From the NCBI GenBank assembly GCA_029858305.1, contig JAOUFI010000003.1, positions 1 to 64,000 of the forward strand: a stretch of DNA of 64,000 nt, given 5' to 3'. The notes beneath the pieces are model-generated. The model saw only the letters and a program-made list of their open reading frames with translations. It did not search any database and was not told the origin of the DNA. The DNA comes from Candidatus Thorarchaeota archaeon. Lineage in GTDB: Archaea > Asgardarchaeota > Thorarchaeia > Thorarchaeales > Thorarchaeaceae. The first letter of the stretch is position 1. Every line of letters starts with the position of its first letter. This document shows, piece after piece, positions 10,458 to 37,988 of the stretch. The translations under genes and the position numbers were made by a program.

Positions 10458-11684
10458 ATGGATTTTCCAGCTCTGAAAGAACATGAACTCCAAGATTACG
10501 CCTTTACTTGTGCCCAATGCAGTTTTTGTCAGGTAGGTCATGGTGCGTGTCCAACCTACAAGGTAAAACGACGAGATACATATTCAGGAAAGGGCAAGAT
10601 GCTATTGACCCGTGCTTTGATTCAAGGTCGGCTAAAACCATCTGAAGGACTCGAAGGTCTTAGAGATGGAATCTTTGGTTGCACACTCTGTGGAGGCTGC
10701 GAGGAAGTCTGCCAAGTAGATATCCCCTTTGTTAAAATCTACCAAGTAATGCGCTCTGAATTCAAAAGGCGCAACATGTGGCCAGAACAGCTCCAGATGG
10801 CTAAAGACACTGTCTTGAAGAGCTTCAATATTCAAGGTCAAGCACAAATGGATAGAATCGAGGGCTGGTCGTACTGGACTCCAAATGAGGATGAATTACT
10901 GGATAGACAGGGAACCAAAGCAAAGACTGCATTCTTCTTCGGATGTGCATCATCATTCCGAGGTGTTTCCATTCAGGCTACAATTGCTACAACACTAATC
11001 TTCGATAAAATTCAAGAAGAGTATACCGTGCTGGGAGAAGAAGAGTACTGCTGCGGTGCTCCTCTCATAATGACAGGAGACTTCGAAGGGGCGAGAGTTC
11101 TTGCTGAACACAATATTCAGAAGTACAGAGAGCTTGGTGTTGAGAGGATAGTGACCAACTGCCCAGGTTGCTATAAAATGTGGGCTCATGAATATCATGA
11201 GTTCTTGGGCATAGATCATGGTTTTGAAATAGTCTATGGTTATCAGTATCTTGCTGATCTCCTTGATAAAGGCAAATTGACAGGCTTCAATACGCCACTC
11301 GATGTCACAGTGACCTACCATGATGGTTGCGATGCTGGCCGAAATGCCGGATTCTATGAAGAACCTAGAAAGGTACTTGAGTATCTTCCAGGAGTTACTT
11401 TTGAAGAACTACCCCATAATAAGGCCAATTGCTATTGTTGTGGCTCTGGTGGAGTCCTAAGAGCAATCGATGCAGACTTTGCAAATCAAATCAATAGACT
11501 CAAAGTAGAAGATATCGAGGCAACAAATGCAAGTATTGTGTCGTCTGGATGTCCCTCCTGTGTTGACTTTATGCATGATCAACTTCCTCAAGCTGGTTCT
11601 AATAAGACCGTGAAGGACCTAGTTGTTCTTACTGCACAGGCGCTCGGTCTCTCTTGGGATGGACTTGACGAGATTTATGGTTGA
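10458..11684 (+). CDS. Fe-S oxidoreductase, GlcF/GlpC/HdrD family (2x[4Fe-4S] + 2 CCG domains)
   Basis: CAQCSFC...CP, CTLCGGCEEVC, YCCGAP, NCPGC, YHDGC, YCCGSGG, GCPSC. Confidence 0.9.
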   Translation: MDFPALKEHELQDYAFTCAQCSFCQVGHGACPTYKVKRRDTYSGKGKMLLTRALIQGRLKPSEGLEGLRDGIFGCTLCGGCEEVCQVDIPFVKIYQVMRSEFKRRNMWPEQLQMAKDTVLKSFNIQGQAQMDRIEGWSYWTPNEDELLDRQGTKAKTAFFFGCASSFRGVSIQATIATTLIFDKIQEEYTVLGEEEYCCGAPLIMTGDFEGARVLAEHNIQKYRELGVERIVTNCPGCYKMWAHEYHEFLGIDHGFEIVYGYQYLADLLDKGKLTGFNTPLDVTVTYHDGCDAGRNAGFYEEPRKVLEYLPGVTFEELPHNKANCYCCGSGGVLRAIDADFANQINRLKVEDIEATNASIVSSGCPSCVDFMHDQLPQAGSNKTVKDLVVLTAQALGLSWDGLDEIYG

Positions 11685-17048: not shown

Positions 17049-19121
17049 TTAATTTTCAACAGCTAGTTCCTCAGAGTCTTCAGGAATGTCTTCATAGAGA
17101 TCCTTCTCTTTTCCCTTAAAAGCCCTAAGAAGGGCCTGAGTTTCAATTCCAAACATTGGAAGCATTGCTGAGATCATCAAGAATGCACCCAGCCAAACGA
17201 AAGACACGAGAGGAAGTATTTTTGTATGAACTGTCACTTGGTATATGTTTGGTGCAACGAGTGTAAAACCAGTGACTGCGATGAATATATCTCGAAATGC
17301 GTTTGTCTGCAGGTATACTTGGTGAGTTATCATGTTCCAATCAGGATTGCCCGTGATTACAGCATAGCCTATTCCTACTATTATACTATTATTTGAACTA
17401 TCTATTTCAATAACCTGTAATGTCACAACCATATTGAAATCTCTCTCATTCACCCAGTATTGTAAATTGATGTCAGTCACTTGAATGTAGGTGCCTGGCG
17501 CAATCTCTTGAACACTGTTTTCTACAAAACCAGCATTACTTTCATACACGACGTGCTCGCTCATGAAGACACCTAGAAGTAGTATGATAAGTCCAAGGTG
17601 AAGCATTAGACGACCTATTTCACGAGTACTCACAATCTTGTCCTTTCCTATCATCTGCCTGACGAATGCAATTACAAGAAATGCAATTGCTCCGACCGCA
17701 GGCAACACAAGTAGGTTAGCTGGCCAGAAGTTCGTGGGCAAAGGTCCAGCTCCACCAAACACTGAAAGACCTGCCATTATGCCACCAATGGTGAATAGAG
17801 AAAGCATAATGATTAGTCGTACACGGTTGTTCAGAAATCTAGATTTCAAGCAGAAGAATGCTGAACCTACAAGAAACACACATGCAGCATAGAATCCATA
17901 TTGAAAGAACTCAATTCCTATTCCAATTTGATTGTCTGCTAGATTGGCAGGATCAAGAATTGCCATGCCCAAATTGAAAACCGCTGGATATGCGACACCA
18001 ACTGTGGATGTTGCTGCTACTATGAGCAGACCGATGAAAGCTGTTTTGATTGAGAGTAATCGAATATCTTTCTCCTTGAAAAAGCCAAATACTTCTTCAG
18101 TTTCATCATCAGACATATCACGATAACCAGAATATGTAGTTACAAGCGATCCAAGTATCAAGGTGAAAAGAAGCGTCGCAAGCATGGTCCAGCTCACGAT
18201 GGAAATTCCAAAACCATGGACAGAATTCAGAATTCCACTCCTTGTAACCCATGTTGCGAAAATAACGGTGACATAAGCCATGACAAGAAATGAGTCACGT
18301 AAGACATCATTCTTCCTGAAAATAGGTCTTGCATGATAATATGCAGTTAATAGTAGCCATGGTATTAGTGATGTTGTTTCGACCGGGTCCCATGCCCAAT
18401 AGCCACCCCATCCCAAGACAATATAAGCCCAATACCCACCAATCGCGATACCAGCTGAGAGCATCAACCAAGCAAAGACTGTTGTGAAGCGCACATAGGC
18501 ATTGATCACTGGAATTGGCTCCTTATTACGCTCCTCGCTGCGAAGGGTGAATCCCGCAATCTTTATTGAAAAAGGCACTAAAATCAATGCATATGCAATG
18601 AATATAATCGGTGGATGAATCACGTTCCAGATAGTGGAAAGTAGTGGATTTAGCCCATGTCCATCCGACGGAACTATTCCTTCGATTAATCTAAAGGGAT
18701 CAGCTGCTAATGCATTCACAGCAACAAGGACAGATGAGACCACCATGATAATAGCTGCTCGGTATACGAGCTTATCATCTTCGTATCCTCGACTTAGTAG
18801 TCTAAATCCAAAGTACAGAATGAATGATAGAAATGTCCAAAAGATGAGCGACCCTGATTGTCCAGCCCACAAAGCCGAGATTTTCAACAAAAGACTTGCC
18901 TCGATATTTGTTACTTGGGTAACATATTCGTATTGAAACTGATTTAGGAAAATCATTGTGCCCATCCATAGCAGAGTTCCTGTTGCAGCTATAAAACCAA
19001 TAAAGGAAGCAATGATTGAATACCGTTCATAGTTCTCAATTTTTGGACCCACCACCAGAATGAGGGCATCCAAAATTCCTGCTACAATCGTAGCAATTAG
19101 TAATATTGTACCAATATCCAT
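17049..19121 (-). CDS. ccmF: Cytochrome c biogenesis heme lyase CcmF
   Basis: WAGQSGSL, GLNPLL...HPP, WGGYWAWDPVE (WWD domain), TRSG...SVH, MLHLG. Confidence 0.95.
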   Translation of the reverse strand: MDIGTILLIATIVAGILDALILVVGPKIENYERYSIIASFIGFIAATGTLLWMGTMIFLNQFQYEYVTQVTNIEASLLLKISALWAGQSGSLIFWTFLSFILYFGFRLLSRGYEDDKLVYRAAIIMVVSSVLVAVNALAADPFRLIEGIVPSDGHGLNPLLSTIWNVIHPPIIFIAYALILVPFSIKIAGFTLRSEERNKEPIPVINAYVRFTTVFAWLMLSAGIAIGGYWAYIVLGWGGYWAWDPVETTSLIPWLLLTAYYHARPIFRKNDVLRDSFLVMAYVTVIFATWVTRSGILNSVHGFGISIVSWTMLATLLFTLILGSLVTTYSGYRDMSDDETEEVFGFFKEKDIRLLSIKTAFIGLLIVAATSTVGVAYPAVFNLGMAILDPANLADNQIGIGIEFFQYGFYAACVFLVGSAFFCLKSRFLNNRVRLIIMLSLFTIGGIMAGLSVFGGAGPLPTNFWPANLLVLPAVGAIAFLVIAFVRQMIGKDKIVSTREIGRLMLHLGLIILLLGVFMSEHVVYESNAGFVENSVQEIAPGTYIQVTDINLQYWVNERDFNMVVTLQVIEIDSSNNSIIVGIGYAVITGNPDWNMITHQVYLQTNAFRDIFIAVTGFTLVAPNIYQVTVHTKILPLVSFVWLGAFLMISAMLPMFGIETQALLRAFKGKEKDLYEDIPEDSEELAVEN

Positions 19122-19142: not shown

Positions 19143-21317
19143 TTATCTCGTTCTACTTGATCCTCGCCGCCTCGCTCTTCTTTTTGCGTCTTTCTTTCCT
19201 TCGCGTTGGGCTTCTCTATATCTTCCCCTCTTCCTCTGAACATAGATATAGCCCACACCCGGTGCAGATACGAGCCCTAGTGTTGTAACAATCTGAAAAG
19301 CTGTCCATGGTGATATATAGAAAACGGGTCCAATTACTGTGAGTATATAGAGCCTGCTTTCACCGACATTACCAGACTCATCCATCACCAGAAAGAAGAA
19401 TGCTATTTGATCATTTGCGTTGAATTGTCCAAGTCCAGTGCGCCATATTATTATCTCATCTTCAATCCCTATTGGCGTCATATTTTTGACTATATATGAG
19501 CCTCCATTCAGTTTCCACCAAATCTCACAAGAATTCGTATGGCTTTGTACTGGAAACTCGTAGGTTTCTATGTCTATTATAATATCATCACCTGCTCGGA
19601 CATCACCAGTAGGATAGATGGCGCGAAGCTCGACTGTAGGGGGAAATGTGTCAGTACGTACAATGAAATAGTAAATCCCAGCAATGAAAACACGACCTGT
19701 TGTATCATTGGCAAAGACCTCGAAATTCACTTGAGTGCTATCCTCGAAAGATTCAATCGAATTGTTGTAGACTCCTCCAATCTGTGGATTTGCCAATAAA
19801 GGAAGAATTCCTCGCGTCTCAACACCACCTAAGTTCATTGTATAATTGACAAATACAGTGTCTATGCCATCAGCATCAAGTGCACTTACAGAAAAATCAA
19901 CATTATCCTGAGGCCGAGGATTTGTTGGCGATATCCTGACACGACTGACAATGGGTAGCCCGTAGCCCCATATGCGTTCCAAACCAACTATAGCTTGGGC
20001 TTGCACCGCAGTATAATGAATTTCCCATTCGGGAGAAAAGACCTGCCATTCCTGGTTACTATTAGCTAGAAAACCCTCATGGTCATAGTCCCACAGCCAA
20101 TTCAAAACAAGCTCTAGAGTATCAACAATCAGTCTAATAACATAGATTGAATCGCTTACTTCATACAAATCCTCAAGTGCCGTTGTCATCTGGAACTGAA
20201 TCTCAGTATACTTGTAGTACTTCACATCTTCATCTTCGAGGGGATCATACGGAACACCATCAACCGTTTCTGTATACCAACCACCATTCGGGCCGTCCCA
20301 GTTATTGGTGAGGAGCACTTCAAAGATCTGGTTAGCCGCAGCAAGATATGTCGCGTTTCCGGTTACATTGTATCCATTTACTAGTGCTCTAATCGCCATC
20401 GCATTAAGGTCAGTTACGATTGAATGCCCGACGCTAGCTCCAGCAGGCACAACAACAGTCCCGCCGCTACGATCTACTACCAGCTTTATGCCCATTAACT
20501 CCATTTCATAGTAGTACTTCATATGAAGTAACATGAATGACATTGCGCTATCTGCCATATCAACAAGTGTTGCATTTCCTAACGAAAAACCAGCATCATA
20601 GAGGACCGCGGCTCCAAGAGCAAGGTGATCAAGTCTTTTTCCGTCATTTGGATATGCTTCATCAAAGGATGAAGACACATTCAATGAACCATTTCTCATT
20701 GTATAGTAAAAGAAACCTCCGTAGATTGGATCATAGAGCATATCGGCAAGACAACTCACAGCACTCGCCTTTTCATCTGTGAAATCAAGAGACGAGTTTG
20801 TAGACTCTGCAATTTCAAGAGCCCAATAGGCATATGCTTGGACTCCTGGTCTCTTTGTTTGCCTTACTTCAATTCCTGAGAATTCATTGACATAATAACC
20901 GGAATATATAGGATCCATGAAGGTGCTGACCATTCTATTTGCTGCCCTACTCATCGCAATTCGGTAGGTTTCATTGTTTAAGACTTGGTACGCTTTTGAT
21001 AGAGCGGATATTGCCCAGTAGTAGCTGGCAAGACTAGTCTCCTCAAGAGGACCTATCGTTTGATTGGCACCGCCATCATGAAAGACTCTTCCTGTTGTCA
21101 CATTCATGTGATGATTAATCATAATATCGGCAGTAACCTCTAAATAATCACGGTATGAAGATATGTTGTACTCTGGTTCTTGCGATAATACTATTGACCT
21201 TGCGCTTTGATTGATATCCAATCTATACTCAGGAGTATCAGCTAGATTTGCACCCTGAGCTGGTGCGTTCAACATTAAAGTGGCTAATATTATCGTGACG
21301 ATGATTATTTTCTTCAT
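19143..21317 (-). CDS. Secreted/membrane-anchored (alpha/alpha)6-barrel protein (AGE/YyaL/glycoside hydrolase-like) with Ig-like domains
   Basis: Signal peptide MKKIIIV; recurring DPIYSGYY / DPIYGGFF / WDGPNGGWY / WDYDHEGF motifs; C-terminal TM helix and basic tail. Confidence 0.6.
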   Translation of the reverse strand: MKKIIIVTIILATLMLNAPAQGANLADTPEYRLDINQSARSIVLSQEPEYNISSYRDYLEVTADIMINHHMNVTTGRVFHDGGANQTIGPLEETSLASYYWAISALSKAYQVLNNETYRIAMSRAANRMVSTFMDPIYSGYYVNEFSGIEVRQTKRPGVQAYAYWALEIAESTNSSLDFTDEKASAVSCLADMLYDPIYGGFFYYTMRNGSLNVSSSFDEAYPNDGKRLDHLALGAAVLYDAGFSLGNATLVDMADSAMSFMLLHMKYYYEMELMGIKLVVDRSGGTVVVPAGASVGHSIVTDLNAMAIRALVNGYNVTGNATYLAAANQIFEVLLTNNWDGPNGGWYTETVDGVPYDPLEDEDVKYYKYTEIQFQMTTALEDLYEVSDSIYVIRLIVDTLELVLNWLWDYDHEGFLANSNQEWQVFSPEWEIHYTAVQAQAIVGLERIWGYGLPIVSRVRISPTNPRPQDNVDFSVSALDADGIDTVFVNYTMNLGGVETRGILPLLANPQIGGVYNNSIESFEDSTQVNFEVFANDTTGRVFIAGIYYFIVRTDTFPPTVELRAIYPTGDVRAGDDIIIDIETYEFPVQSHTNSCEIWWKLNGGSYIVKNMTPIGIEDEIIIWRTGLGQFNANDQIAFFFLVMDESGNVGESRLYILTVIGPVFYISPWTAFQIVTTLGLVSAPGVGYIYVQRKRGRYREAQREGKKDAKRRARRRGSSRTR

Positions 21318-21403
21318 TCTTTTTCTTTCCTTGTGAAATGTTTCGCGCAATTGCGATGTGCTTTTAAAATTCGGGTTGTGGCTGTATCGGATTGCCTAGA
21401 GCT

Positions 21404-21473: not shown

Positions 21474-22847
21474 CTATCGACGTCTGCCAACCAATACTCC
21501 TAGGAGCAAGCCAACAAGAATACCACCAGCGGCTCCACCAACAATAATCAGAGTGTCTGCGCTAAATCCAGCAGGTGCTGGTAGATTCTCATAGTAGTAT
21601 GCCTTAGCATCTAGGAGATCTCTAAACGCAGAATTGATCGCATCAAATGTCTCCATTGGATCGTGGAAACCAGATGAACCATCATAGCCGTAATAGCCAA
21701 CAGTGGTTGAAGCAGCGTCAATCTCATCTTGCACATAGTTGGCAAGAGTGATATTTGCGCCAGCTGTCGCATTGTAAGCTGCTACTGCTGTTTCGAGGGC
21801 TGATGCTTCAGCTTCGAAATCTGCTACGAGGGCATCGTATGATGACATAATCTCTTCTAGTTGGTTGATAGCCCACGCTTCTTGTCCTTCATGGCACTCA
21901 GGTGCCTGACCACAGGCGTCTTCTGGGAGAACAGCAAAGGTATGGTTCATTTCAGGTCCATGTGAACCTTGTACAAAACCATGACAATCTGTACACTCAA
22001 CAATGCCGGTCAAGTCATGTGCGCCACCCGTCCATACATTGATGGTCGTGTGACGGGCTGAATTACCGTGGCAGAGACCACAGAGTTCTGTGGAATTCTC
22101 AGCCCATATCTGAGCTGGGTTCACTACCTGTGCGTCATGGATAGCGTGACATGCGGGACAAGTGATAGCGTTGTAGTTGCCTTCGGGATCAAGGTCATCG
22201 TCTTCACCGAAGAAGCCGTTGTAACCGAGGAATCCCTCAGCTGACATGCAGTGCATACAGTCTGATCCTGCATGGCTACTTGTTCTTAGATCTGTAAGTG
22301 AGTTGGCATGAGCCGATTCGGTGTAACCTTCGAGGCCACCGTGCCCTTCATGGATGTGACAAGAGGCACAAACACTACCATTTACTGAGTAGTATGGTGT
22401 GGATGTGTCATGACATGTCAGACAGTTGGTTCCAAATCCATCATGTGTATATGGATAGTCCGTGGCGTTACGCTCCGGAGTCCAACCAATTGCATGACAC
22501 TGAGCACATGTCGCGTTCCAAGCCAAATAGGTTCGTTCGCGAGCACCATTGACCGTGACGTTGCCTGATGTTTCATTATAGTATATTAGGTAACCTGAGT
22601 GGGTGGTCATATTCCAATATTCCCATGTCTGGTTATGACATTCACCTGTCAGGCATGAAACACCATTTTCTTGGTCAGGGGTTGCGAGTTCATGCGCCTC
22701 ACGTACTCTGTCAACGGATAATGTGACAGGTATTCCAGATCCCGTTGGTCCTAGGAGAATGGCGAAACCGATTAGGCAGAGGAACAGGTAATAACCCGCT
22801 ACCATCCGCTTATTGACCCCAGGGGTCTCTTCAGTGTAGTACACCAT
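21474..22847 (-). CDS. Membrane-anchored multiheme c-type cytochrome (NrfA/ONR/HAO-like superfamily)
   Basis: Six CxxCH (CAQCH, CLTCH, CASCH, CPACH, CGLCH, CTDCH), plus CLTGECH, CGQAPECH and CMHCM. Helical C-terminus with DGSSGFHDP; N-terminal signal/TM and C-terminal TM followed by RRR. Confidence 0.88.
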   Translation of the reverse strand: MVYYTEETPGVNKRMVAGYYLFLCLIGFAILLGPTGSGIPVTLSVDRVREAHELATPDQENGVSCLTGECHNQTWEYWNMTTHSGYLIYYNETSGNVTVNGARERTYLAWNATCAQCHAIGWTPERNATDYPYTHDGFGTNCLTCHDTSTPYYSVNGSVCASCHIHEGHGGLEGYTESAHANSLTDLRTSSHAGSDCMHCMSAEGFLGYNGFFGEDDDLDPEGNYNAITCPACHAIHDAQVVNPAQIWAENSTELCGLCHGNSARHTTINVWTGGAHDLTGIVECTDCHGFVQGSHGPEMNHTFAVLPEDACGQAPECHEGQEAWAINQLEEIMSSYDALVADFEAEASALETAVAAYNATAGANITLANYVQDEIDAASTTVGYYGYDGSSGFHDPMETFDAINSAFRDLLDAKAYYYENLPAPAGFSADTLIIVGGAAGGILVGLLLGVLVGRRR

Positions 22848-23207: not shown

Positions 23208-24404
23208 ATGAAACGTAAAGTCAGAATTGGACTTGTTCTAGTTGCGGCAATAGTCATTATTATGCTTGCAGCAGGCAATGCCTTTGCTCATAGCGAATAC
23301 GAAGTAGACTGTTCAACATGCCACGATGTTTCATCAGGCATGTCAATAACCACAGTATCGACAATAAACACAGGCCCAGGAGAAACTTTTCAGGTTGACG
23401 TTGTTGCGACTGGGTTGGCTCAAGATGTCTTTGTGCTACGCATACCGACTGATGTGGCCGATAATGACCAATTCACAATAAATGTGCCAGCGAACACAGA
23501 GAATCCAGGACTTGTTGAAGACAATGATGCACTAGACTTGGATTCGAACAACAATGGAATTCATGCAATCTACAATATTACAGCTCCCGCATTTTCTGGA
23601 ACATACACACTAATCATCTGGGCAGCTCAACATACTGACAATGGAATCAGTAGATCAATAACTGTAAATGTGATTGAGGGAGGTCCAGGTCCGTCAATTG
23701 GAGCACCATCAACAACGCCACAAGTTCCACTTGCGAACGAAGAATTCACTGTCACGGTTACTATTTCATCCTCAGATACTATAACCTATGTCAGACTGCA
23801 GTATAGTATTGATGGTGGGATTAATTGGCTGAATGTTACAATGTCTGAGTCAGGTGGTTTATATTCTGGTACAATACCCGGATTACCGAATAATCAGGAA
23901 GTGCACTGGCGAATCGTGGCAGCTGATTCTTCTGGAGAGAGAGTTAGTGCTACCTTAACATTCACTGTCGGCGTAATTCCGATAGAGCCTATAGAGATTC
24001 CCCAATTTCATTATGGATGGTTGCTAGGGGCGCCAGCTTTGGTTATTGCCTACATTGGCACGGCTCTCGAGTATTATGATGAAGAGCGATTCACGAGAAT
24101 CCATGGTATGATGCTAGGCATCGCTTATGTATTAACATCCATTAACGTTGTAAGTCTAGTAATGGAACCTGCAGGCGTTTGGGCCGCGATGAATCCTGTC
24201 TATCTGTTCGATCTGAGTAACATGCTCATATTCATGCATGCTTGGCATATCTGGCTTGGCATAATCAGCATGGTTCTGGGCACTCTTGCACTCATAACAC
24301 ATCTTGGAGGGTGGAAGACATGCAATCTTGGATTACCAGCAGTTGTGCTATGGACTATTCTGGGAATAATGGGCTTCTATCTAGGAGAGGTATTTGTTCC
24401 GTGA
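23208..24404 (+). CDS. Mono-heme c beta-domain + Ig-like domain + His-rich multi-TM (cytochrome b561-like) membrane domain
   Basis: Signal peptide, DCSTCH; C-terminal TM helices carrying RIHGMML, FMHAWHIWLG and LITHLGG. Confidence 0.75.
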   Translation: MKRKVRIGLVLVAAIVIIMLAAGNAFAHSEYEVDCSTCHDVSSGMSITTVSTINTGPGETFQVDVVATGLAQDVFVLRIPTDVADNDQFTINVPANTENPGLVEDNDALDLDSNNNGIHAIYNITAPAFSGTYTLIIWAAQHTDNGISRSITVNVIEGGPGPSIGAPSTTPQVPLANEEFTVTVTISSSDTITYVRLQYSIDGGINWLNVTMSESGGLYSGTIPGLPNNQEVHWRIVAADSSGERVSATLTFTVGVIPIEPIEIPQFHYGWLLGAPALVIAYIGTALEYYDEERFTRIHGMMLGIAYVLTSINVVSLVMEPAGVWAAMNPVYLFDLSNMLIFMHAWHIWLGIISMVLGTLALITHLGGWKTCNLGLPAVVLWTILGIMGFYLGEVFVP

Positions 24405-24414
24405 GGTGATTGAA

Positions 24415-25875
24415 ATGTCAAATACTGATATAGAAACTACAATCACACAAACTCCCGAGAAAGCAACAATAATAGAGATGCTGAAGGGAGTAGTGGGAGA
24501 AGAGAGAGTTTCAGACTCTGAGTTAGAAAGAGTGGTCTATAGTGGAGATCCTGCAGTACTACCTCAGTATCACTACAGATGGAAGAGAAAATACCTTGCT
24601 GATTACGCTGTCCGAGTTGAAAGTGAAGAAGAGATAGAAGGTATTCTGAAAATCGCACGTGAACATAACATACCTGTTGTCCCCAGAGGTGGAGCCTCAA
24701 GCTGTATGAGTTCTTCAAGCCCTAGCCGTGGAGGAATATCTCTCGATCTCAAGCCAATGAACAAGATACTAGAGATTAACAAAAAGGGTATGTTCGTAAG
24801 AGTCGAACCCGGAGTCACGTTCGAAGGACTTGCAAATAGCTTAGATAAAGAAAATCTCACTTTAGGTATCTATCCATCCAGTGCAAAGTCTGCAGTTATC
24901 GGAGGCTGGATTGCATGTGGAGGCAGAGGTGGAATCGGCACTCCATTCTATGGTGGACTTAAGGACCATATCTTGTCATTATCCGTCATAGGAGGAGATG
25001 GCGAAGTCAAGTTGTTAGAGGGAGATGATATCGACATCCTTCTACATTCCTATGGAATATTGGGTGTCATCTTTGAAATCAAACTGAAGGTACATGAGAA
25101 CGTTCGTGAATACAAGTCATTTAGTTATGGATTTAGAACAACCGATGAACTCTGCAATGCAATGGTGGAAATCACTAAGCTTGAGGTCAAGCCAATTTAT
25201 CTAAAAATTGCAGATGACGAGCTGCAGAAATTCAGCAATCCACTCGAAATCGGTAAGTACGTTCTATCAGTGACTTATGTCGATACACCATCAGATATCC
25301 CGCTCGAGGACTTGAAGTCGATCACTGGAAAATATGATGGCGTGTATATCAGCGATGAATTCTCCAAGAAGGAGTGGGATTTGAGGTATGATGCAGAATT
25401 CAATCCCAAAGAACATACAGAGACCTTGATGTTTCAAGAATTCTGGATGCCTGTTGAAAAAGTATCTAAGATGCTTTCAAAATATGAATCATATCGACGT
25501 TCGCACAGGATTCCAGCCCTATGGTTTGGGATGCTTGGTTCTCATAACGAAATGAGACTAGAACTCATGGCAATGATAGATGCAGCTCAGTACCTCAAAT
25601 TCATCTCAAGTAAGGGAATCTTGCACAAGATGATGAAGAGAGCAATCAAATTGGGAGGAGGACCATATACGATCGGTCTTCAGAATTCAATATACATGTC
25701 TCGTGCCTATCCAGCACGATTGACAGAGATGCAAGAGGCGAAGAAGAAGTGGGACCCTAACGGAATCATGAATCCGGATAGAGTCACAAGTTGTTTGACA
25801 TCATTCAGAAGAATAGATGTGCTCTTCTTGCTTGCTACTGCGTTTCGAAGACTCTCAAAATATGTAGGTGGGTGA
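24415..25875 (+). CDS. FAD-linked oxidoreductase (GlcD/Dld-like)
   Basis: VVPRGGASS, YPSSAKSAVIGGWIA, YGILGVI, WDPNGIMNP; GAGGTG SD before ATG 24415. Confidence 0.88.
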   Translation: MSNTDIETTITQTPEKATIIEMLKGVVGEERVSDSELERVVYSGDPAVLPQYHYRWKRKYLADYAVRVESEEEIEGILKIAREHNIPVVPRGGASSCMSSSSPSRGGISLDLKPMNKILEINKKGMFVRVEPGVTFEGLANSLDKENLTLGIYPSSAKSAVIGGWIACGGRGGIGTPFYGGLKDHILSLSVIGGDGEVKLLEGDDIDILLHSYGILGVIFEIKLKVHENVREYKSFSYGFRTTDELCNAMVEITKLEVKPIYLKIADDELQKFSNPLEIGKYVLSVTYVDTPSDIPLEDLKSITGKYDGVYISDEFSKKEWDLRYDAEFNPKEHTETLMFQEFWMPVEKVSKMLSKYESYRRSHRIPALWFGMLGSHNEMRLELMAMIDAAQYLKFISSKGILHKMMKRAIKLGGGPYTIGLQNSIYMSRAYPARLTEMQEAKKKWDPNGIMNPDRVTSCLTSFRRIDVLFLLATAFRRLSKYVGG

Positions 25876-25884
25876 ATCGTTACA

Positions 25885-27009
25885 ATGAATATCGATAATC
25901 TTTCAGAAATACTACGGAATTGTGGTTCATGTAATTATTGTAGAGACACATGTCCTATGTATATCGAGCTAAAATCGGAGCTTGACAGTCCAGGAGGAAA
26001 ACTACGAGCTCTACGAGCATATGCCACTAAAATGAGGAATCCACCAATCGAGCTCCTACAGAGACTCTACTGTGCAGACTGTCGTCGTTGTGAAGCAATA
26101 TGTCCTGCTGGAGTCCCTGTCACAACCATCTGGCATGATGCCAAGAAACAACTACTAAAAACAGGAGCAGAGATGACAGAGTCACTTCAGAAAGTCCTCG
26201 ATTGGATAGAGAAAGAAGGGACACCCTTCATCGGATATGAATCTGATGATAGAACTTTATGGGCTGAAGATCTAAAGCTTCCTCCAGAATCAAATACAGC
26301 GATATTTTCAGGTTGCATGGGTTCATTCTGGTATCCAGATCAACCTGAAACAGTAGTCGACATGTTGCATAAATTAAATGTCAATGCAGGCTATGTGCCC
26401 AGCGAAGTCTGTTGTGGTCTATTCAACTACTGGGCAGGTGATGATGAGGGATTCGAAAAAGTAGTTCGCAAGAATTACGAGATGTTCAAGAAAGCAGGAG
26501 TCGACCATATTGTCACCGGTTGCGGTGGTTGCTATGGCACACTGGCAGAACATTATCCCCACATAATTCCCGACTTTGATATCAAGATTCTGCATACAGT
26601 AGAAGTCTTGGCGGATATGGTTCGCAACGGAGTTCTCACGTTCGAAGAGTTGGAAGGGAGCTATACTTATCACGATAGTTGTCATCTCGGAAGAGCTTTG
26701 GGTATCTATGAACCCCCAAGAGAGATCATAAAGGCGATTCCCGGACTTGAGTTCGTTGAGATGAAAAACAGCAGAGAAAGTTCGAACTGTTGTGGTGGTT
26801 TCCTTTCAGTTCTCGATCCAGATTTAGCTGAATCTGTAGGAAGACGGAGAGTTGCAGAAGCAGAAGAACTAGGAGTTGATGGGATTATCACGACATGCGT
26901 GTCGTGTTATAAGAACCTCAGCTATAATGCAAGGGAAACAAAGCTGAAAGTCATTCAGCTTGATGAACTAATACTAGATAAAGCTAGATCCTCTCAAGTA
27001 GGGGGGTAG
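25885..27009 (+). CDS. Fe-S oxidoreductase, GlcF/HdrD family (CCG domains)
   Basis: CGSCNYCRDTCP, CADCRRCEAICP, VCCG, YHDSCHLGR, NCCGG. Confidence 0.9.
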   Translation: MNIDNLSEILRNCGSCNYCRDTCPMYIELKSELDSPGGKLRALRAYATKMRNPPIELLQRLYCADCRRCEAICPAGVPVTTIWHDAKKQLLKTGAEMTESLQKVLDWIEKEGTPFIGYESDDRTLWAEDLKLPPESNTAIFSGCMGSFWYPDQPETVVDMLHKLNVNAGYVPSEVCCGLFNYWAGDDEGFEKVVRKNYEMFKKAGVDHIVTGCGGCYGTLAEHYPHIIPDFDIKILHTVEVLADMVRNGVLTFEELEGSYTYHDSCHLGRALGIYEPPREIIKAIPGLEFVEMKNSRESSNCCGGFLSVLDPDLAESVGRRRVAEAEELGVDGIITTCVSCYKNLSYNARETKLKVIQLDELILDKARSSQVGG

Positions 27010-27028
27010 GAAGAGTTACATAGAAACA

Positions 27029-28372
27029 ATGGAGATGTTAGTTATGAGCAAAGAAAAAGGCACACGAGTTGTTGTCGTAGGTGGCGGAATTTCAGGATTC
27101 AGTTGTGCACTAGAATTGAAAGGTCTGAAGGCACGTTGTACGATTCTTGAAAAAGAGAAGACTGTCGGTGGTCGAGCAAGATCCTACACAGAATCGGGAT
27201 ATGTATTTGACCAAGGTCTGCACTTTTTCGTAGGTGGCTTCAAATCACTTATCCCAATTCTTGAGAGAAGTGGAGTAAAAATGACCACTGTCGGTGAGGG
27301 TGCAGTATGGTTGAAGGATGGGAATAGGCATCTCATCCGTAGATCAGCTGTTGAGCTCGCAAAATTCGGACTTCTTCCTACAGCCGATAGGGCTAAACTA
27401 GGATTACTAGTTCAGGAGAATATAAAGCGAAAGGAAGCCGAGTTCAAAGAACTTGACAAAATGACCTTTTCTGAATATGCCGAGGATAAGAAGATTCCAG
27501 AGTCTATTCAGAATGATTTCTATGAACCTCTTATTAAAACAGTCACCTTCATGCATCCAGATGAGGTTTCTGCAGGACAATATCTATACTCAGAACACTT
27601 GAGATTTGCATATGAGGATGGCTTTAGTGCTATGTATCCAGAACGTGGAGGATTAGGGAGTGTAGCATATACCCTGATGCTTCAAGCACGCAACTTTGGA
27701 GTAGAGCCACAAGTCAACTGTGCTGTCAAGCAAGTAATAATCGAGGATAGTAAAGTCGTTGGTGTTGATTATGAACAGGATGGGGAGAGCAAACACCTCG
27801 ATACCGATGCTGTTGTGATAACTGTTCCAATTGACCTCTTGCCCAACTTTGTGAAAATGAGTGATTTGCCAAAAGAGTTTACACAGAAGATTTCAAAATT
27901 CGAATATACTCCCTCTACTGTTGCTTACTTCGGTCTGAAGTCAAGAGTTTTGGATTTCAATGTTGGAGCCTTTGTACCAGGAAGAAAAATCAACATTGTT
28001 GCTGAAGCAAAGAGAGTATCAGGAGTTTTGGCACCAATTGGTGAGTCCCTCTTAACAGTAACCGGTATTGATAAAGAACTTCTCAAAATGAGTGATGAGG
28101 AAGCTACTCAAGAAATACTTGATGAGCTAGAGATTCTTATTCCCGGAGTAAAAGATAAGGTCACATGGAAGAAGAGTTGGAAAATCTGGAAATCAGTTCT
28201 TAAGCAGCCACCAGGAATCATGGATGACCGCTTGAAGTCTAACCGAACAGGTATACAAGGACTCTATGTTGCTGGTTCATATGCGAACTGCGGCATGTAT
28301 TATGCCTCTATGGAAGCAGCTTCTAGATCCGGTATTGCTTGCGCGGGCGAGATGATTGAGGATCTTAAGTGA
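27029..28372 (+). CDS. FAD-dependent oxidoreductase, phytoene desaturase/HpnE/protoporphyrinogen oxidase superfamily
   Basis: VVVVGGGISG...LEKEKTVGGRARS...FDQGLH; GLYVAGSY...SMEAASRSG. Confidence 0.8.
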   Translation: MEMLVMSKEKGTRVVVVGGGISGFSCALELKGLKARCTILEKEKTVGGRARSYTESGYVFDQGLHFFVGGFKSLIPILERSGVKMTTVGEGAVWLKDGNRHLIRRSAVELAKFGLLPTADRAKLGLLVQENIKRKEAEFKELDKMTFSEYAEDKKIPESIQNDFYEPLIKTVTFMHPDEVSAGQYLYSEHLRFAYEDGFSAMYPERGGLGSVAYTLMLQARNFGVEPQVNCAVKQVIIEDSKVVGVDYEQDGESKHLDTDAVVITVPIDLLPNFVKMSDLPKEFTQKISKFEYTPSTVAYFGLKSRVLDFNVGAFVPGRKINIVAEAKRVSGVLAPIGESLLTVTGIDKELLKMSDEEATQEILDELEILIPGVKDKVTWKKSWKIWKSVLKQPPGIMDDRLKSNRTGIQGLYVAGSYANCGMYYASMEAASRSGIACAGEMIEDLK

Positions 28373-28463: not shown

Positions 28464-29672
28464 GTGGTGTACTTTGAGATGACCAAACTGGACTTCATTG
28501 AGAGATACGGGCAAGAAAACGAACCGTATATCTGCGCATCATGTGGGAACTGCACTCTTGTGTGTCCAGTTTACAGCGAATTGAAATGGGAATCCTACGG
28601 TCCCAGAGGAAAGCTCCATGTCGTTAAATCGATAATCGAAGGAGAAGGTGAATTTGGAAAGGATTTCGCTCACAAAATATTCCTCTGCAATCTTTGTGAG
28701 CATTGTACTTCTGTTTGCACAACTGGTATTAGTCTTGACAGATTTTGGGAAGTAGCTAGAGCAGAGGTCAGAGAGAGGGGTCTCTTGCCAGCACCAGCAC
28801 AATTCGTTCTAAAGTCGGTCAAAGAACGTGGCGACATCATGTGGATGGGTTCTGCGGATAGACTCCTTTGGATGGAAGGTATTGATGAGCTGGTCAAAGA
28901 TCGCATCCTGAAAAAAGCCAAAGTTGCGTATTTTCTTGGTTGCAATGTTTCATTAAAATCGCAGCTACATGATGTTGCACAATCAATGGTTAAAATCATG
29001 GACTATGCTGGTATCGACTTTACCCTACTAGGTGAGAAAGAAGTATGTTGTGGTGCTCCTCTGAGTTGGGCTGGAAATCTTAAAGACATCAATGAAATGG
29101 CTGAGAAGAATCTGTCACTGATTCGTGAACTAGGTGTTGAAACTGTAGTTTTTAGCTGCCCCTCCTGTATTCAGACATGGTCGGAATACAGCAAATCTGT
29201 AAAAGAAGACAAGAGTATTGAGCTGTTGACAGCATCTCAATTCATCAACCGTCTAATTCGAGAGAAACGACTTCATTTCGAAGAACAACCTATGATTACG
29301 ACAACATTTCATGATCCATGCATATCTGCGAGGGTCTTGAAAGCGACTGAGGAACCGAGAGAGATAATGGATGAGATTCCCGGAGTATATCATGTCGAAA
29401 TGAATCCATCCCGACAAAACACGAGGTGCTGTGGCGCTCATGGTTTACTTGATGTTGTTGATCCAGTTCTTTCATCAAGAATTGCTGAAAGACGCCTTAG
29501 AGATGTTACTGTTACCCCGGCCACTCGAATTGTCACTGAGTGTCCGCGATGCATTCTAGCATTTGACCTAGCAAAATTTACAACTGGTTATGAGATGTTG
29601 GTACAAGATATTACACAACTTGTAGAAGGTGCTTTGTCGCCAAAAGAACAGGGAGGTGGCAAAGACCACTGA
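28464..29672 (+). CDS. Fe-S oxidoreductase, GlcF/HdrD family (CCG domains)
   Basis: CASCGNCTLVCP, CNLCEHCTSVC, VCCGAP, FHDPC, RCCGAHG. Confidence 0.9.
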   Translation: MVYFEMTKLDFIERYGQENEPYICASCGNCTLVCPVYSELKWESYGPRGKLHVVKSIIEGEGEFGKDFAHKIFLCNLCEHCTSVCTTGISLDRFWEVARAEVRERGLLPAPAQFVLKSVKERGDIMWMGSADRLLWMEGIDELVKDRILKKAKVAYFLGCNVSLKSQLHDVAQSMVKIMDYAGIDFTLLGEKEVCCGAPLSWAGNLKDINEMAEKNLSLIRELGVETVVFSCPSCIQTWSEYSKSVKEDKSIELLTASQFINRLIREKRLHFEEQPMITTTFHDPCISARVLKATEEPREIMDEIPGVYHVEMNPSRQNTRCCGAHGLLDVVDPVLSSRIAERRLRDVTVTPATRIVTECPRCILAFDLAKFTTGYEMLVQDITQLVEGALSPKEQGGGKDH

Positions 29673-31390
29673 AAATCAATGAACTCCAAATTGGTGACAT
29701 CGTTGGGGCTGACAATGTATCCACGACTCCAGAAACTTGCATGATATATTCAAAAGATGTGACAAGTCTGCCTGATCTAGCTCATCAAATTGTGAGTCCG
29801 AGATTTGATGTGGTGACTCAGCCTGTGGATGTGCTATCACTTCAAAATCTAATCATCTATGCCATAGAGAACGGGATACCTATTGTACCTCGGGGGAATG
29901 GCACCTCTGGCTGGGGTGGGGCAATTCCCACCAGAGGAGGTCTTTGTATCTCTCTTTCAGCAATGTCGGGAATTTTGTATTTTAACGAATTTGAGTCTGC
30001 TGTGACAGTGGAAACTGGAATTACTTGGAGAGATCTGTTGGCATTCTTGGAACGACTTGGGTTTACATTGCCGGTTTACCCATCAAGTGCCACTGCAGCT
30101 ACAGTAGGGGGTTTTGTCGCCAGTGGAGGTCTTGGAATAGGCTCAACTCGTAATGGAGACATTCTGAAGCAGGTTATTGGAATCGAAGCCATCTTACCAA
30201 ATGGGAAAATTGTCAGATTAGGTAGATTATTGTTGGATTCGAAAACTGATCCACTCAGGGAGAAAGTTGAGGAAGGCAACTCCTGGTTAAGTGAGAAGCT
30301 ATCTGATGCTGGACTTGGCTCTCCAGAACAAGAAACCAAGCTTTTCACTGGGACATATGGCACACTTGGCATCATAACTAAAGTTACACTCAAGACAATA
30401 CCCAACCTCCAGCTCATCCCCTTTTCATGCTCATTTGATCGTATGACTGACCTAGTAAGAGCAGCTGATAGAATACTCTCTGAGGTCAAACCATACTACA
30501 TGAGATTTCTTGCAGATAATTACACTTCTAAATTAAGAGCCTTGAGTGAATATGAAAATGAGAGTGGAAAGTATATTCTCACAGGAGCTCTTCTTGATAC
30601 TATCTACCAAAATGAGGATAACATTGAGATAATCAAGACTGTAACAAACGAGGAAAAAGGATATGTACTAGATGATAAGCGATCATGGTTTTATTGGTCT
30701 GAAAGGCTCTATCCTTTGAGAATCAAGCGACATGGACCAAGCCTTGTTCCTGCAGAAATGCTCGCGCCTATGAACATGCTTCCAGAAATACTTGAAAAGA
30801 CAAAGGCAGAACTTCGAAATTCAAAGGTAGCAATTGAGGGGACACTAAGCAACGATGGCACAACATCATTCATGGTCTGGATTTTGGATGATGAGAGAAA
30901 AAAAGTTTCATTCACCATTGGCTGGTACAGATCTTTTCAGATTGCATCACTCGCTGAAAGGTTCGGAGGGCTCCCATATGCAGTAGGGCTTTGGAACGGG
31001 AGGCATGCAAGAAAATTCTATGGAAATGACTCTTATAAAAATCTCAAAGTAATGAAGAAGAAACTTGATCCATCTAACATAATGAATCCGCTGAAGGTCT
31101 TTGGAGGTAGAGTTACGATTGGTCGTGAATCAATGCTCCTCGGATTTCTATTGGGATTTATTGTAACAATGATTGGAGGATGGTTATTGCCAGGATTACT
31201 TAATCTTGATTGGCTGAATCAATTTCTAAGCTTGAGTCTGGTACAGTTCTTATATTTCCCTAATCTGTGGCTTCTTGGACTAGCTGGAGGTTTGATAGCA
31301 GTCATGATAATCCGATTCATGAGATTAAGCCAGGCACTCGCAATTGGAATTCCAATTCTTAGGATTCTGAGTAAACTGCTTCGACGATAG
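29669..31390 (+). CDS. FAD-linked oxidoreductase with C-terminal TM helices (probable CTG start at 29669; first ATG at 29741)
   Basis: PRGNGTSGWGG, YPSSATAATVGG, YGTLGIITKV, LDPSNIMNP. The upstream in-frame extension KINELQIGDIVGADNVS matches paralog N-termini. Confidence 0.85.
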   Translation: MKINELQIGDIVGADNVSTTPETCMIYSKDVTSLPDLAHQIVSPRFDVVTQPVDVLSLQNLIIYAIENGIPIVPRGNGTSGWGGAIPTRGGLCISLSAMSGILYFNEFESAVTVETGITWRDLLAFLERLGFTLPVYPSSATAATVGGFVASGGLGIGSTRNGDILKQVIGIEAILPNGKIVRLGRLLLDSKTDPLREKVEEGNSWLSEKLSDAGLGSPEQETKLFTGTYGTLGIITKVTLKTIPNLQLIPFSCSFDRMTDLVRAADRILSEVKPYYMRFLADNYTSKLRALSEYENESGKYILTGALLDTIYQNEDNIEIIKTVTNEEKGYVLDDKRSWFYWSERLYPLRIKRHGPSLVPAEMLAPMNMLPEILEKTKAELRNSKVAIEGTLSNDGTTSFMVWILDDERKKVSFTIGWYRSFQIASLAERFGGLPYAVGLWNGRHARKFYGNDSYKNLKVMKKKLDPSNIMNPLKVFGGRVTIGRESMLLGFLLGFIVTMIGGWLLPGLLNLDWLNQFLSLSLVQFLYFPNLWLLGLAGGLIAVMIIRFMRLSQALAIGIPILRILSKLLRR

Positions 31391-32743: not shown

Positions 32744-33922
32744 ATGACAAAACCCTATGAACCTCTCAAAATTGAGGGACTTGATATTGAACCAACAGTG
32801 TGTGCGAGATGTGGTTTCTGCACCTTCGTGTGCCCAGCATATCTTGACACACTTTGGGATTCTCAATCACCGAGAGGAAAGCTATACCAACTGAGAGACC
32901 TTATTAAAAATAAGAAGAAAATCCCTGCTGACTTTGCAGCCAGGATATTCAATTGTACCTTGTGTGGAGCATGCCAGGAAATTTGTCAGACAAACATACC
33001 TCTTTTGAGATTCTGGCAACTTACGAGAGAAGAGATTGGCAATCTTGAAGAATGGCCAGAAATCGTGAATTATATCGATACCGCCTTACAAGAGACCCAA
33101 AACATCATGGAAATGGACCAGGATGACAGAACTCTCTGGACCGATATGGTTGATGACCTTGTAGAAAAGAGAACTGGAATCAAAGCTGAAGTTGCGTATT
33201 TTGCAGGCTGCAACATTTCATTCAAAGGCACCCTCGCTCATCTTGGTGAGAATACGATAAAAGTAATGGATGCAGCAGGTGTCGATTTCACAATACTTGG
33301 CAGCGAGGAGTTCTGCTGCGGCAATCCATATTTTGTAGCTGGTGGCTTCGATAAAGCTCGAGAGCTTGCAATGCATAATCTAGCAGCGCTCAAGGAATTA
33401 GGCGTGAAGACGGTTGTATTCAACTGCCCTGGATGTCATCGAGCCTTTGCAGAGGAATATCCCCATCTACTCGGAAAGGATTCGGTAGAGGGATTAGAGT
33501 TTCTGCCTTTCTCCGAGTTTACCCTAAGACTTCTCAAAGAAGGAAAAATCAAGTTCACAAAGAATTACCCTCACACAGTCGCATGGCATGATCCATGTGA
33601 ACTTGGACGTCATCAGAATATCTACAATCCTGCTCGAGAAGTCCTTAATGCAATTCCCGGACTCAAACTGCGGGAGATGAAGCATGCAAGAAACAAGGCA
33701 AGATGCTGTGGCGGTGGAGGACTGCTGAAGGGGACTAATCCAATGATGTCGGTGAGAATATCGGGTCGGAGAGTTGAAGAAGCGGAAAAGACCGGAGCAG
33801 AATTCATAGCTAGCGAATGTCCATCGTGTACGATGTCATTCAATGACGGAATTGAGCACAAGAATTCCAAAATGAAATTCAAGGATTTGTCACAGATTGT
33901 CGTGGAAGCTCTTGGATTATAG
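32744..33922 (+). CDS. Fe-S oxidoreductase, GlcF/HdrD family (CCG domains)
   Basis: CARCGFCTFVCP, CTLCGACQEIC, FCCGNP, WHDPCELGR, RCCGGGG. Confidence 0.9.
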   Translation: MTKPYEPLKIEGLDIEPTVCARCGFCTFVCPAYLDTLWDSQSPRGKLYQLRDLIKNKKKIPADFAARIFNCTLCGACQEICQTNIPLLRFWQLTREEIGNLEEWPEIVNYIDTALQETQNIMEMDQDDRTLWTDMVDDLVEKRTGIKAEVAYFAGCNISFKGTLAHLGENTIKVMDAAGVDFTILGSEEFCCGNPYFVAGGFDKARELAMHNLAALKELGVKTVVFNCPGCHRAFAEEYPHLLGKDSVEGLEFLPFSEFTLRLLKEGKIKFTKNYPHTVAWHDPCELGRHQNIYNPAREVLNAIPGLKLREMKHARNKARCCGGGGLLKGTNPMMSVRISGRRVEEAEKTGAEFIASECPSCTMSFNDGIEHKNSKMKFKDLSQIVVEALGL

Positions 33923-33933
33923 GTGGTGAAGAG

Positions 33934-36414: not shown

Positions 36415-36423
36415 GGTGATATT

Positions 36424-37104: not shown

Positions 37105-37172
37105 ATGCGTGTCTTCAGCAAAACGTTCATATTGCAAGTAGTAGGGGAATCAGCAGTTCGAGTTGAAAAGCC

Positions 37173-37841: not shown

Positions 37842-37845
37842 GAAT

Positions 37846-37986
37846 ATGCAACAGTTTGAACTATTCATCGTAGCCACAATATTTTGGGGTGGTATTTTCA
37901 TTTTCCTATTATACCTTCTAATGAGAATGGCTGGAATCGAGAAACAACTCAAAGTTGTAGAAGCACAGATCGATGGAGAACAATAG
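37846..37986 (+). CDS. ccmD: CcmD-like small membrane protein (46 aa; below the ORF-track cutoff)
   Basis: MQQFELFIVATIFWGGIFIFLLYLLMRMAGIEKQLKVVEAQIDGEQ: one TM helix plus a charged tail, exactly between ccmC and ccmE, preceded by AAGGAG. Confidence 0.7.
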   Translation: MQQFELFIVATIFWGGIFIFLLYLLMRMAGIEKQLKVVEAQIDGEQ

Positions 37987-37988
37987 AA

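Follow-up and report, generated by a model that had tools for sequence, protein, structure and literature searches.

What has become of a multihaem cytochrome's reactive site when the histidine that should follow its second cysteine is gone? The question is posed by a gene on contig JAOUFI010000003.1 of a Candidatus Thorarchaeota archaeon (assembly GCA_029858305.1), of which we analysed positions 1 to 64,000, referred to here as the window. The open reading frame (ORF) at 21474–22847 on the minus strand encodes an OcwA-like, nonahaem-type c cytochrome of 457 amino acids (aa). A pattern scan of the translation, checked against the coordinates, gives nine motif sites, as originally predicted: six CxxCH, one CX4CH, one CX5CH and, at the fifth site, the CxxCM motif CMHCM. 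Plus-strand positions 22245–22259, reverse-complemented, read TGT ATG CAC TGC ATG, codon for codon as had been claimed. Because a change from His (CAY) to Met (ATG) takes more than one base, the motif is not a single-base error; a sequencing or assembly error of another kind, or a chance motif, is ruled out by conservation in the family, since nine motifs are present in 107 of 109 full-length members and the Cys pair of the fifth site is invariant.

Within the OcwA/NrfA superfamily the gene represents a conserved Asgard branch, which descends with OcwA and works like it. At its fifth site the canonical His has been given up; both Cys, the local frame and, in most members, the distal His have been kept, and the cassette to which the gene belongs holds a haem lyase. 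Literature is cited by PubMed Central accession, and each statement refers to the excerpts of that paper that were consulted.

An Asgard branch of the OcwA/NrfA superfamily

The best match in the PDB is 6i5b_A (OcwA), with E values of 5.3e-9 for the single sequence and 3.2e-40 for a family profile built from 83 relatives. It is followed in the profile search by 6qvm_A (OmhA) and then by NrfA and octahaem nitrite reductases, which align over the C-terminal part only. The nine motifs align one-to-one, and in the same order, with the nine of the 6I5B sequence, the layout of OcwA-type cytochromes, whose N-terminal module resembles c554 and whose C-terminal module resembles NrfA. An AlphaFold2 model built on the family alignment has a mean predicted local distance difference test score (pLDDT) of 85.1, and its comparison with known structures, a check proposed along with the original prediction, gives the same ranking: Foldseek places 6i5b_A first in the PDB (E 8.4e-11, template modelling score 0.57; chains 6i5b_A/B at about 9e-11), then 6qvm_A, and NrfA chains further down. 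The only Pfam models to pass their cut-offs are PF14522 and PF13435, both generic multihaem models, and NCBIfam returns nothing above cut-off for this protein and no NrfA model at E ≤ 0.01.

Taken together, these sequence and model comparisons support membership in the NrfA/octahaem superfamily, as originally proposed, with the nonahaem OcwA, and not NrfA, as the nearest relative. Membership in NrfA itself was considered and rejected, as the protein has nine motifs instead of five and neither CXXCK nor CXXCH at the catalytic position. It is likewise set apart from OcwA proper, because it lacks a His-ligated haem 5 and has not conserved the haem-2 pocket.

The fifth site lies at the reactive haem position

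In all alignments the counterpart of CMHCM (residues 197–201; 22245–22259, minus strand) is the fifth motif of OcwA, CLKCH, after which OcwA reads SAEAY; the site is therefore at the position of OcwA haem 5 and NrfA haem 1. The suspicion that the odd motif marks the catalytic or open haem of the superfamily is borne out by these alignments. The wording expected of relatives, CxxCHSxEGF, fits loosely, as the aligned stretch of OcwA reads CLKCHSAEAY. OcwA haem 5 is described as five-coordinate with an open distal site and as a second active site, and OcwA haems 5–9 superimpose on the NrfA haem core (PMC6703420). Haems 2 and 5 of OcwA each have a proximal His and a distal side open under a His-His motif, haems 1, 3, 4, 6, 7 and 8 are bis-His, haem 9 is His/Met, and haems 1–4 and 6–9 superimpose on MccA (PMC6703420, PMC9250108).

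A word-indexed search returned 131 proteins, of which 120 are listed (42–92% identity; those named are from Thor-, Prometh- or Odinarchaeota); together with the query they form a family alignment of 121 rows. Counted over rows with a residue at the position, the Cys pair of site 5 is invariant (C197 115/115, C200 120/120), and so is His199, the X2 residue in the loop between them (120/120). Residue 201 varies, being Met in 108 rows, Gln in 11 and Leu in 2, and the motif itself reads CMHCM in 101 rows, CMHCQ in 11 and CMHCL, CLHCM and CSHCM in one each, six rows being truncated N-terminally. Not one of the 120 homologues listed carries a His behind the second Cys, so that close orthologues, which the original prediction had singled out as its test, do not read CxxCH. 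Within the family the Cys pair is thus fixed and the Met is not, and the original prediction had overlooked the invariant X2 His; C-x-H-C-[M/Q/L] is the better notation for the motif. At the six remaining CxxC sites the second Cys is followed by His wherever a row has a residue there, and none of these sites has His among its six commonest X2 residues.

The surroundings of the site are conserved as well. Upstream lies the segment LTDLR (22284–22298, minus strand), in which R188 and D186 are each invariant (115/115 rows with a residue). On the presumed distal side, Arg265-His266 (22050–22055, minus strand) is a candidate pocket of site 5: it aligns with the His-His pair that is numbered 351/352 in the 6I5B construct and H380/H381 in the papers, an offset of 29 that follows from the other His-His pair (252/253 in the construct, 281/282 in the papers). 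It also aligns with the Gln-His of two Desulfovibrio NrfA proteins (D. vulgaris, D. desulfuricans). We take the His of that pair to be the distal catalytic His of NrfA, which the PDB titles of E. coli NrfA Q263E and H264N fit. Across the 121 rows, position 266 is His in 100, Tyr in 11, Gln in 3 and a gap in 7; His266 is retained in ten of the eleven Gln201 rows, the remaining one showing a gap directly preceded by a His. At the haem-2 pocket there is no conserved His-His, positions 166 and 169 being His in 28 and 50 of the 121 rows, respectively.

Distant relatives and recurrence of the motif

An exhaustive HMMER search of representatives at 50% identity gave 74 matches. The near-full-length ones that are most OcwA-like retain CxxCH at site 5, and CxxCK stands there in the nonahaem-like P0147 and in an NrfA, P0189. 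A clade matching Hod- and Heimdallarchaeota (up to 100% identity to proteins of metagenome-assembled genomes, MAGs) reads CLHCM, with single cases of CLHCV, CTHCM, CMPCV and CMHCM, and fragments read CLHCK, CVHCM and CMHCN. The small clade nearest a Bathyarchaeia MAG protein combines CLHCM (P0129, P0133) with CVRCH/CMSCH (P0128, P0150). P0121, a long branch nested in the Thor family, reads CMYCH, having regained His after the Cys and lost the X2 His. In several Hod/Heimdall-type proteins site 2 is non-canonical too (CGHCM, CSHCM, CAGCM, CFMCK, CASCR or CYACF).

A FastTree phylogeny covers 78 rows, in which the query is joined by 37 rows of the Thor family (one in three of the full-length rows, and the full-length ones among 12 listed variant-motif rows) and 40 distant matches of 380–700 aa. 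Among the 77 tree rows with a residue at both positions, 55 have the X2 His only, 18 have His after the Cys only, four have neither and none has both. The covariation is not significant, since only four independent pairs exist, of which two to three are opposite (sign test, p 0.25–0.5).

The motif also recurs in larger proteins. P0159, P0177, P0183 and P0188 are cytochromes of 973–1622 aa in which a three-motif unit occurs up to nine times in tandem; the unit spans about 95 residues, is homologous to query residues from about 174 to 266, and has CAHCM, CAKCM or CARCV as the first motif of each copy. A PDB search with P0177 gave only a weak HAO-like match, which lies outside the C-x-[H/K]-C-M unit.

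Comparison with characterized cytochromes

The protein shares with OcwA of Thermincola potens (6I5B), besides the colinear motifs and the best sequence and fold match, a C-terminal three-helix bundle, a pocket beside haem 5 (His-His in OcwA, Arg-His here) and exposure, predicted here, on the outside of cells that have no outer membrane. It differs in that haem 5 of OcwA has the canonical motif CLKCH with a proximal His, in an identity of only about 17–30%, in the haem-2 His-His pocket, which the Asgard protein has not conserved, and in the host, a Gram-positive bacterium there and an archaeon here; the crystallized OcwA construct also has no C-terminal membrane helix. OcwA is described as reducing iron oxides outside the cell and as acting, on the side, on nitrite and hydroxylamine (PMC6703420). 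The undecahaem S-layer cytochrome OmhA of Carboxydothermus ferrireducens (6QVM), the second-best profile and fold match and also a cell-surface protein, carries two more haems at its N-terminus and reads CLECH, a canonical motif, at the aligned site.

With NrfA, the C-terminal five-haem module, the GFH helical bundle and the Gln/Arg-His distal segment align, and in NrfA, too, the second Cys of the catalytic haem is followed by a residue other than His, namely Lys; in E. coli this haem is described as needing a dedicated lyase, NrfEFG. However, NrfA has five haems with CXXCK (or, in some clades, CXXCH), as against nine sites and C-x-H-C-M here. The quinol-site haem of NrfH is reported to be five-coordinate and bound by the Met of CXXCHXM (PMC8840924), a c-type haem with the Met next to its attachment motif as the protein ligand. 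This precedent makes a Met-ligated, five-coordinate c-haem less unusual than the original prediction implied. NrfH, an unrelated small membrane tetrahaem protein, nevertheless keeps the motif His, whereas the Asgard protein has none after the Cys and one inside the loop instead. MccA, an octahaem sulfite reductase, belongs to the same superfamily clade as OcwA (PMC9250108), and its last haem has a lengthened loop, CX15CH, where the Asgard family ranges from CX2 to CX11. MccA matches far more weakly than OcwA in fold and sequence, however, and it has no haem-5 position, its active site being haem 2 (PMC6703420), whereas the site-5 Cys pair is kept here.

A 2024 survey of natural haem c motifs gives CX2CH, CXCK, CX2CK, CX3CH, CX4CH, CX11CH, CX15CH and CX17CH (PMC11492766); none of the motifs in that list, as excerpted, has a residue other than His or Lys after the second Cys, and CxHCM is absent from it. 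Our literature searches, outside which supplementary files lay, found no description of the family or of a natural CxxCM/CxHCM haem motif, and for CXXCM returned only papers on chromatin CxxC and one on engineered variants.

Layout of the protein and predicted surface exposure

All features of the cytochrome lie on the minus strand. Hydropathy marks an N-terminal hydrophobic helix at residues 14–33 (22749–22808; helix 13–32 in the model), a putative signal anchor whose sequence is unusually conserved, many positions within residues 1–40 being at least 90% conserved. Haem site 1, CLTGECH (CX4CH; residues 65–71, 22635–22655), aligns with OcwA motif 1, CKTCH, and site 2, CAQCH (114; 22494–22508), takes the position of the other open haem of OcwA, haem 2. 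The motif scan then gives site 3, CLTCH (142; 22410–22424), and site 4, CASCH (160; 22356–22370), upstream of site 5, and, downstream of it, site 6, CPACH (230; 22146–22160), which is followed by an invariant His237, site 7, CGLCH (256; 22068–22082), and site 8, CTDCH (285; 21981–21995). Site 9, CGQAPECH (CX5CH; residues 312–319, 21891–21914), is at the last-haem position. The two extended motifs are thus those of the first and last haems, and their spacing varies within the family. Over the 109 full-length rows, site 1 is CX2 in 42, CX3 in 3, CX4 in 56, CX5 in 5 and CX6 in 3; site 9 is CX2 in 1, CX4 in 18, CX5 in 69 and CX6 in 5, with longer loops of CX8 in 7, CX9 in 1, CX10 in 7 and CX11 in 1.

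The model has long helices across residues 323–420. Within this bundle, DGSSGFHDP (389–397; 21657–21683) aligns with the matching C-terminal-helix segments of NrfA and OcwA, the resemblance to which the original prediction had drawn attention; H395 is present in all 119 rows with a residue there and is a likely distal haem ligand. A C-terminal transmembrane helix ending in RRR (21477–21557; hydropathy, and helix 431–455 in the model) would serve as membrane anchor. The sequence contains 11 N-x-S/T sequons, as against 3.6 ± 1.7 in composition-matched shuffles, of which 2 in 2000 reached 11, and the PGF-, Heimdall- and Loki-CTERM sorting models match distant relatives below threshold. The terminal helices, the RRR end and the sequons fit an exported, membrane-tethered archaeal glycoprotein on the cell surface.

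A conserved cassette with a haem lyase

In the window the cytochrome gene is followed on the same strand by a gene for a 735-aa protein and then by one for a CcmF/NrfE-family haem lyase. A scan of one genome per GTDB species, with the site-5 motif itself as the pattern, gave 39 loci, which come from MAGs of Thor-, Hermod-, Hod- and Heimdallarchaeota and from one MAG of Bathyarchaeia; by their selection these loci give no measure of motif conservation. Of the 32 loci with at least 1.5 kb downstream, 29 have the 735-aa gene after the cytochrome, and the whole cassette of three genes is present in 25 of the 27 with at least 4 kb, spanning Thor-, Hod- and Heimdallarchaeota. The two loci without it (L024, L029) are second copies, and the same MAGs hold a copy with the cassette (L026, L036).

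The 735-aa surface protein (19143–21350, minus strand; start probably at 21317) has a signal peptide, an (alpha/alpha)6-like domain, Ig-like domains and a C-terminal anchor; its Atlas record begins at residue 12. Its identity falls as low as 24–26% in Hod/Heimdall loci, and its place is always between cytochrome and CcmF. Searches of Pfam, NCBIfam and the PDB gave only weak matches resembling cellobiose 2-epimerase, and the Atlas gave no usable match. It contains no conserved Cys, so that a role as a CcmH-like thiol reductant, which we considered, is unsupported.

The lyase gene (17049–19121, minus strand) matches PF01578 at 7.6e-28 and scores 197 bits with TIGR03145 and 184 bits with TIGR00353, both far below the cut-offs. 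A dedicated NrfE-like lyase for CMHCM was considered and cannot be claimed, as the protein stays below the NrfE and CcmF cut-offs and its gene often lies beside ccmABCE like that of a general lyase. The System I haem delivery genes ccmA, ccmB, ccmC and ccmE, identified with Pfam and NCBIfam, are in the window at 35734–38375 on the plus strand, with CcmE ending in a Cys-x-x-x-Tyr motif; all four lie within 10 kb of the cassette in 8 of the 39 loci. Archaea are described as having CcmB, C, E and F and lacking CcmH, save for Ferroglobus placidus (PMC4429474), and a non-His motif residue as being accepted only by special variants of Systems I and II (PMC4158909). Of the generic marks of a c-type haem, site 5 has Cys two residues apart, a protein of exported type and System I genes in the window; it lacks the His or Lys that serves as proximal ligand directly after the second Cys.

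A 398-aa membrane protein is encoded divergently upstream of the cytochrome (23208–24404, plus strand) and adjoins it in 10 of the 39 loci by tblastn, all of them Thor-type. It has a signal peptide, one CxxCH, two beta-sandwich domains and four C-terminal helices, a membrane part that is modelled at pLDDT below 55 and that is very conserved, with five invariant His (H268, H299, H344, H347, H365). It belongs to no Pfam family, and a PDB sequence search gave nothing relevant. We suggest that it is a candidate electron-input partner of the cytochrome, and it may be a new c/b-type membrane cytochrome. Beyond it follow genes for a GlcD-like flavoprotein, a CCG (HdrD-like) iron-sulfur protein and an amine-oxidase-like flavoprotein; genes for a prenyltransferase, a polyprenyl synthase and a geranylgeranyl reductase lie on the other side. 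Among the neighbours of the cytochrome in the window no nrfH-like gene was seen.

Pairs of genes for GlcD-like flavoproteins and CCG/HdrD-like proteins recur nearby: library matches give three adjacent pairs and a lone CCG gene in the 25 kb around the cytochrome (10458–11684, 24394–27009, 28464–31390 and 32744–35655, plus strand). Conservation is very uneven within this one neighbourhood. In loci L002–L012 the CCG protein and the amine-oxidase/HpnE-like flavoprotein (25885–28372, plus strand) are 87–92% identical by tblastn (77% for the CCG fragment of L009), and the cytochrome is only 50–69% identical to that of the window.

A proposed methionine-ligated exit haem and its alternatives

We tentatively favour, at a little short of an even chance, an outward-facing terminal oxidoreductase in which the fifth haem is ligated by Met. 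We envision that the N-terminal segment of this Thorarchaeota-type cytochrome directs its export and that the C-terminal helix holds it, probably glycosylated, on the outer face of the membrane. Eight sites would be ordinary His-ligated haem sites, the first and last with lengthened Cys-Cys loops. At site 5 a haem would still be bound to both Cys through thioethers, with Met201 in the place of the proximal ligand, like the Lys of NrfA or the motif-adjacent Met of NrfH haem 1; the opposite face would open to a pocket lined by Arg265-His266 and Arg188. Electrons would enter from the quinone pool or from membrane dehydrogenases, possibly via the 398-aa protein as a c/b-type intermediary, travel along the nine-haem chain and leave at site 5, its exit, for an extracellular substrate or acceptor. 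Because OcwA reduces iron oxides, nitrite and hydroxylamine, the substrate here cannot be named. His199 would be needed by the haem lyase or would tune the haem: since lyases normally demand the motif His, the loop His could be the handle of the archaeal lyase, or alternatively a real ligand. The recurrence of CxHCM/CxxCM at the other open-haem site of OcwA and in the repeat units, as read from the alignments, speaks for such a haem.

Several observations weigh against it. Met201 is not invariant, being replaced within the family by Gln (11) and Leu (2 of 121 rows) and in distant relatives by Val, Asn, Lys or Gln, and neither Leu nor Val can ligate iron. The invariant residue is His199 and not the Met, and the proposed mechanism accounts for it only indirectly. 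His266 is absent from 21 of the 121 rows, both Leu201 rows carry Gln266, and several Hod/Heimdall-type relatives have the 266 segment deleted entirely. The AlphaFold2 model was built without cofactors. As the CcmF of the cassette cannot be distinguished from a general CcmF, the cassette may be the only cytochrome c kit of the organism. The E. coli Ccm system, moreover, is reported to have failed with CXXCK, CXXCM and CXXCR variants (PMC4158909), and OcwA itself is thought to reduce extracellular iron oxides (PMC6703420).

The proposed role of OcwA in iron-oxide reduction at the cell surface also fits a different reading, in which site 5 is a closed, six-coordinate Met201/His266 haem of raised potential and forms the electron-transfer end-point of a pure surface conduit, serving extracellular or interspecies electron transfer as proposed for OcwA. 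Met201 and His266 do occur together in 90 of the 121 rows, the topology and the sequons point to surface exposure, and the C-x-[H/K]-C-M unit, repeated three to eight times in P0159, P0177 and P0183, looks more like a wire than an enzyme. However, the homologous His is described as leaving the iron unbound in OcwA and NrfA, rows with Gln, Leu or Val at 201 or without His266 cannot form the pair, and the invariance of His199 is left unexplained; we regard a closed conduit haem as unlikely, though worth keeping in view. That same invariance (120/120, while residue 201 varies) is an argument for a shifted ligand, in which the loop His of C-x-H-C binds the site-5 iron and residue 201 is merely a hydrophobic residue of the pocket. 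The tree rows, with 55 having the X2 His only, 18 the reverse, four neither and none both, agree with this, as do P0121, in which the gain of His after the Cys goes with the loss of the X2 His, and the rarity of His at X2 of every other CxxC site, where it is outside the six commonest residues. Against it, the covariation comes down to few independent events, the model gives an ordinary helix over residues 195–201, and in the helix geometry of CXXCH the X2 residue points away from the haem. X2 is also Lys or Arg in the repeat proteins (CAKCM, CARCV), Lys in OcwA (CLKCH) and Pro in CMPCV. We know of no precedent for ligation of this kind and consider it rather improbable.

Site 5 might, on the other hand, hold no haem at all, with Cys197, His199, Cys200 and perhaps Met201 binding a metal such as copper, or the Cys acting as a redox dithiol, beside a chain of eight haems. 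Cys, His and Met are typical ligands of soft metals, and C399 and C495 of MccA, we assume, hold a copper ion. These two are described as catalytic cysteines of an enzyme from the same superfamily clade (PMC9250108), MccA is an example of the evolutionary loss of the haem-5 position (PMC6703420), and canonical Ccm needs the motif His (PMC4158909). Yet the exact C-x-x-C spacing, the flanks S-x-E-G-F and H-A-x-S-L-x-D-L-R and the distal Arg-His have all been kept relative to OcwA, CxHCM recurs at the other open-haem site, and a missing haem 5 would create a cavity in a fold that is predicted well. These points are not decisive; a haem-free site is the less likely state, and we give it only a small chance. 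Far less probable still is an ordinary ammonia-forming cytochrome c nitrite reductase (NrfA), although several database records name homologues so, PF02335 is precomputed on many of them, and the C-terminal similarity includes the Gln-His and GFH segments. Besides the number of motifs and the residue at the catalytic position, the NCBIfam result at E ≤ 0.01 and the lack of an nrfH-like neighbour in the window speak against it, and OcwA and OmhA outscore every NrfA in the profile and fold searches. A plain NrfA is thus contradicted at the level of the family, and nitrite reduction as an activity is possible.

Beyond the Met-ligated exit haem of this one protein, C-x-H-C-[M] may represent a new natural class of c-haem motif at the open or reactive haems of Asgard cytochromes, present at site 5 everywhere and also at site 2 in Hod/Heimdall-type proteins, with the haem on Met or on the loop His. 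The loop His would enable attachment by a System I without CcmH, and the adjacent 735-aa protein would perhaps assist attachment to a motif that bacterial Ccm rejects. We consider this possible but doubtful. If true, the haem would be a catalytic or exit one that differs from His- or Lys-ligated haems in redox behaviour and ligand binding, and it would belong to the main and possibly the only surface cytochrome of these archaea.

Implications

More than 100 natural C-x-H-C-M proteins at the reactive-haem position of NrfA and OcwA would allow what a haem lyase needs to be probed, and likewise the effect of a Met or shifted-His ligand on a catalytic haem. The cytochrome travels with its own maturation genes across Thor-, Hermod-, Hod- and Heimdallarchaeota, and its surface-exposed appearance makes it a candidate route for electrons to minerals, soluble acceptors or partner cells; its Asgard hosts are mostly fermentative archaea prone to syntrophy. 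The database label "ammonia-forming nitrite reductase" likely misleads inference about the nitrogen cycle from metagenomes.

Other features of the window

Further genes in the window are of interest in their own right. At 3603–5543 on the minus strand, a 646-aa protein fuses a GlcD-like FAD oxidase (PF01565/PF02913) to NuoB (NF005012, 175.9 bits against a cut-off of 116); its gene adjoins ORFs resembling NuoA, NuoJ and NuoC, in a region that also includes 375–2332 on the minus strand. Such a fusion may wire a hydroxy-acid dehydrogenase directly into a complex-I-like module. Full-length genes for MutS (39377–41977, plus strand), MutL (60246–62060, plus strand) and UvrA (50974–53805, minus strand) are present, as is a heliorhodopsin gene (46872–47693, plus strand; PF18761, 301.6 bits). 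A 1414-aa surface protein rich in PKD and Ig domains (6120–10364, plus strand) carries a single CAPCH, a putative haem motif.

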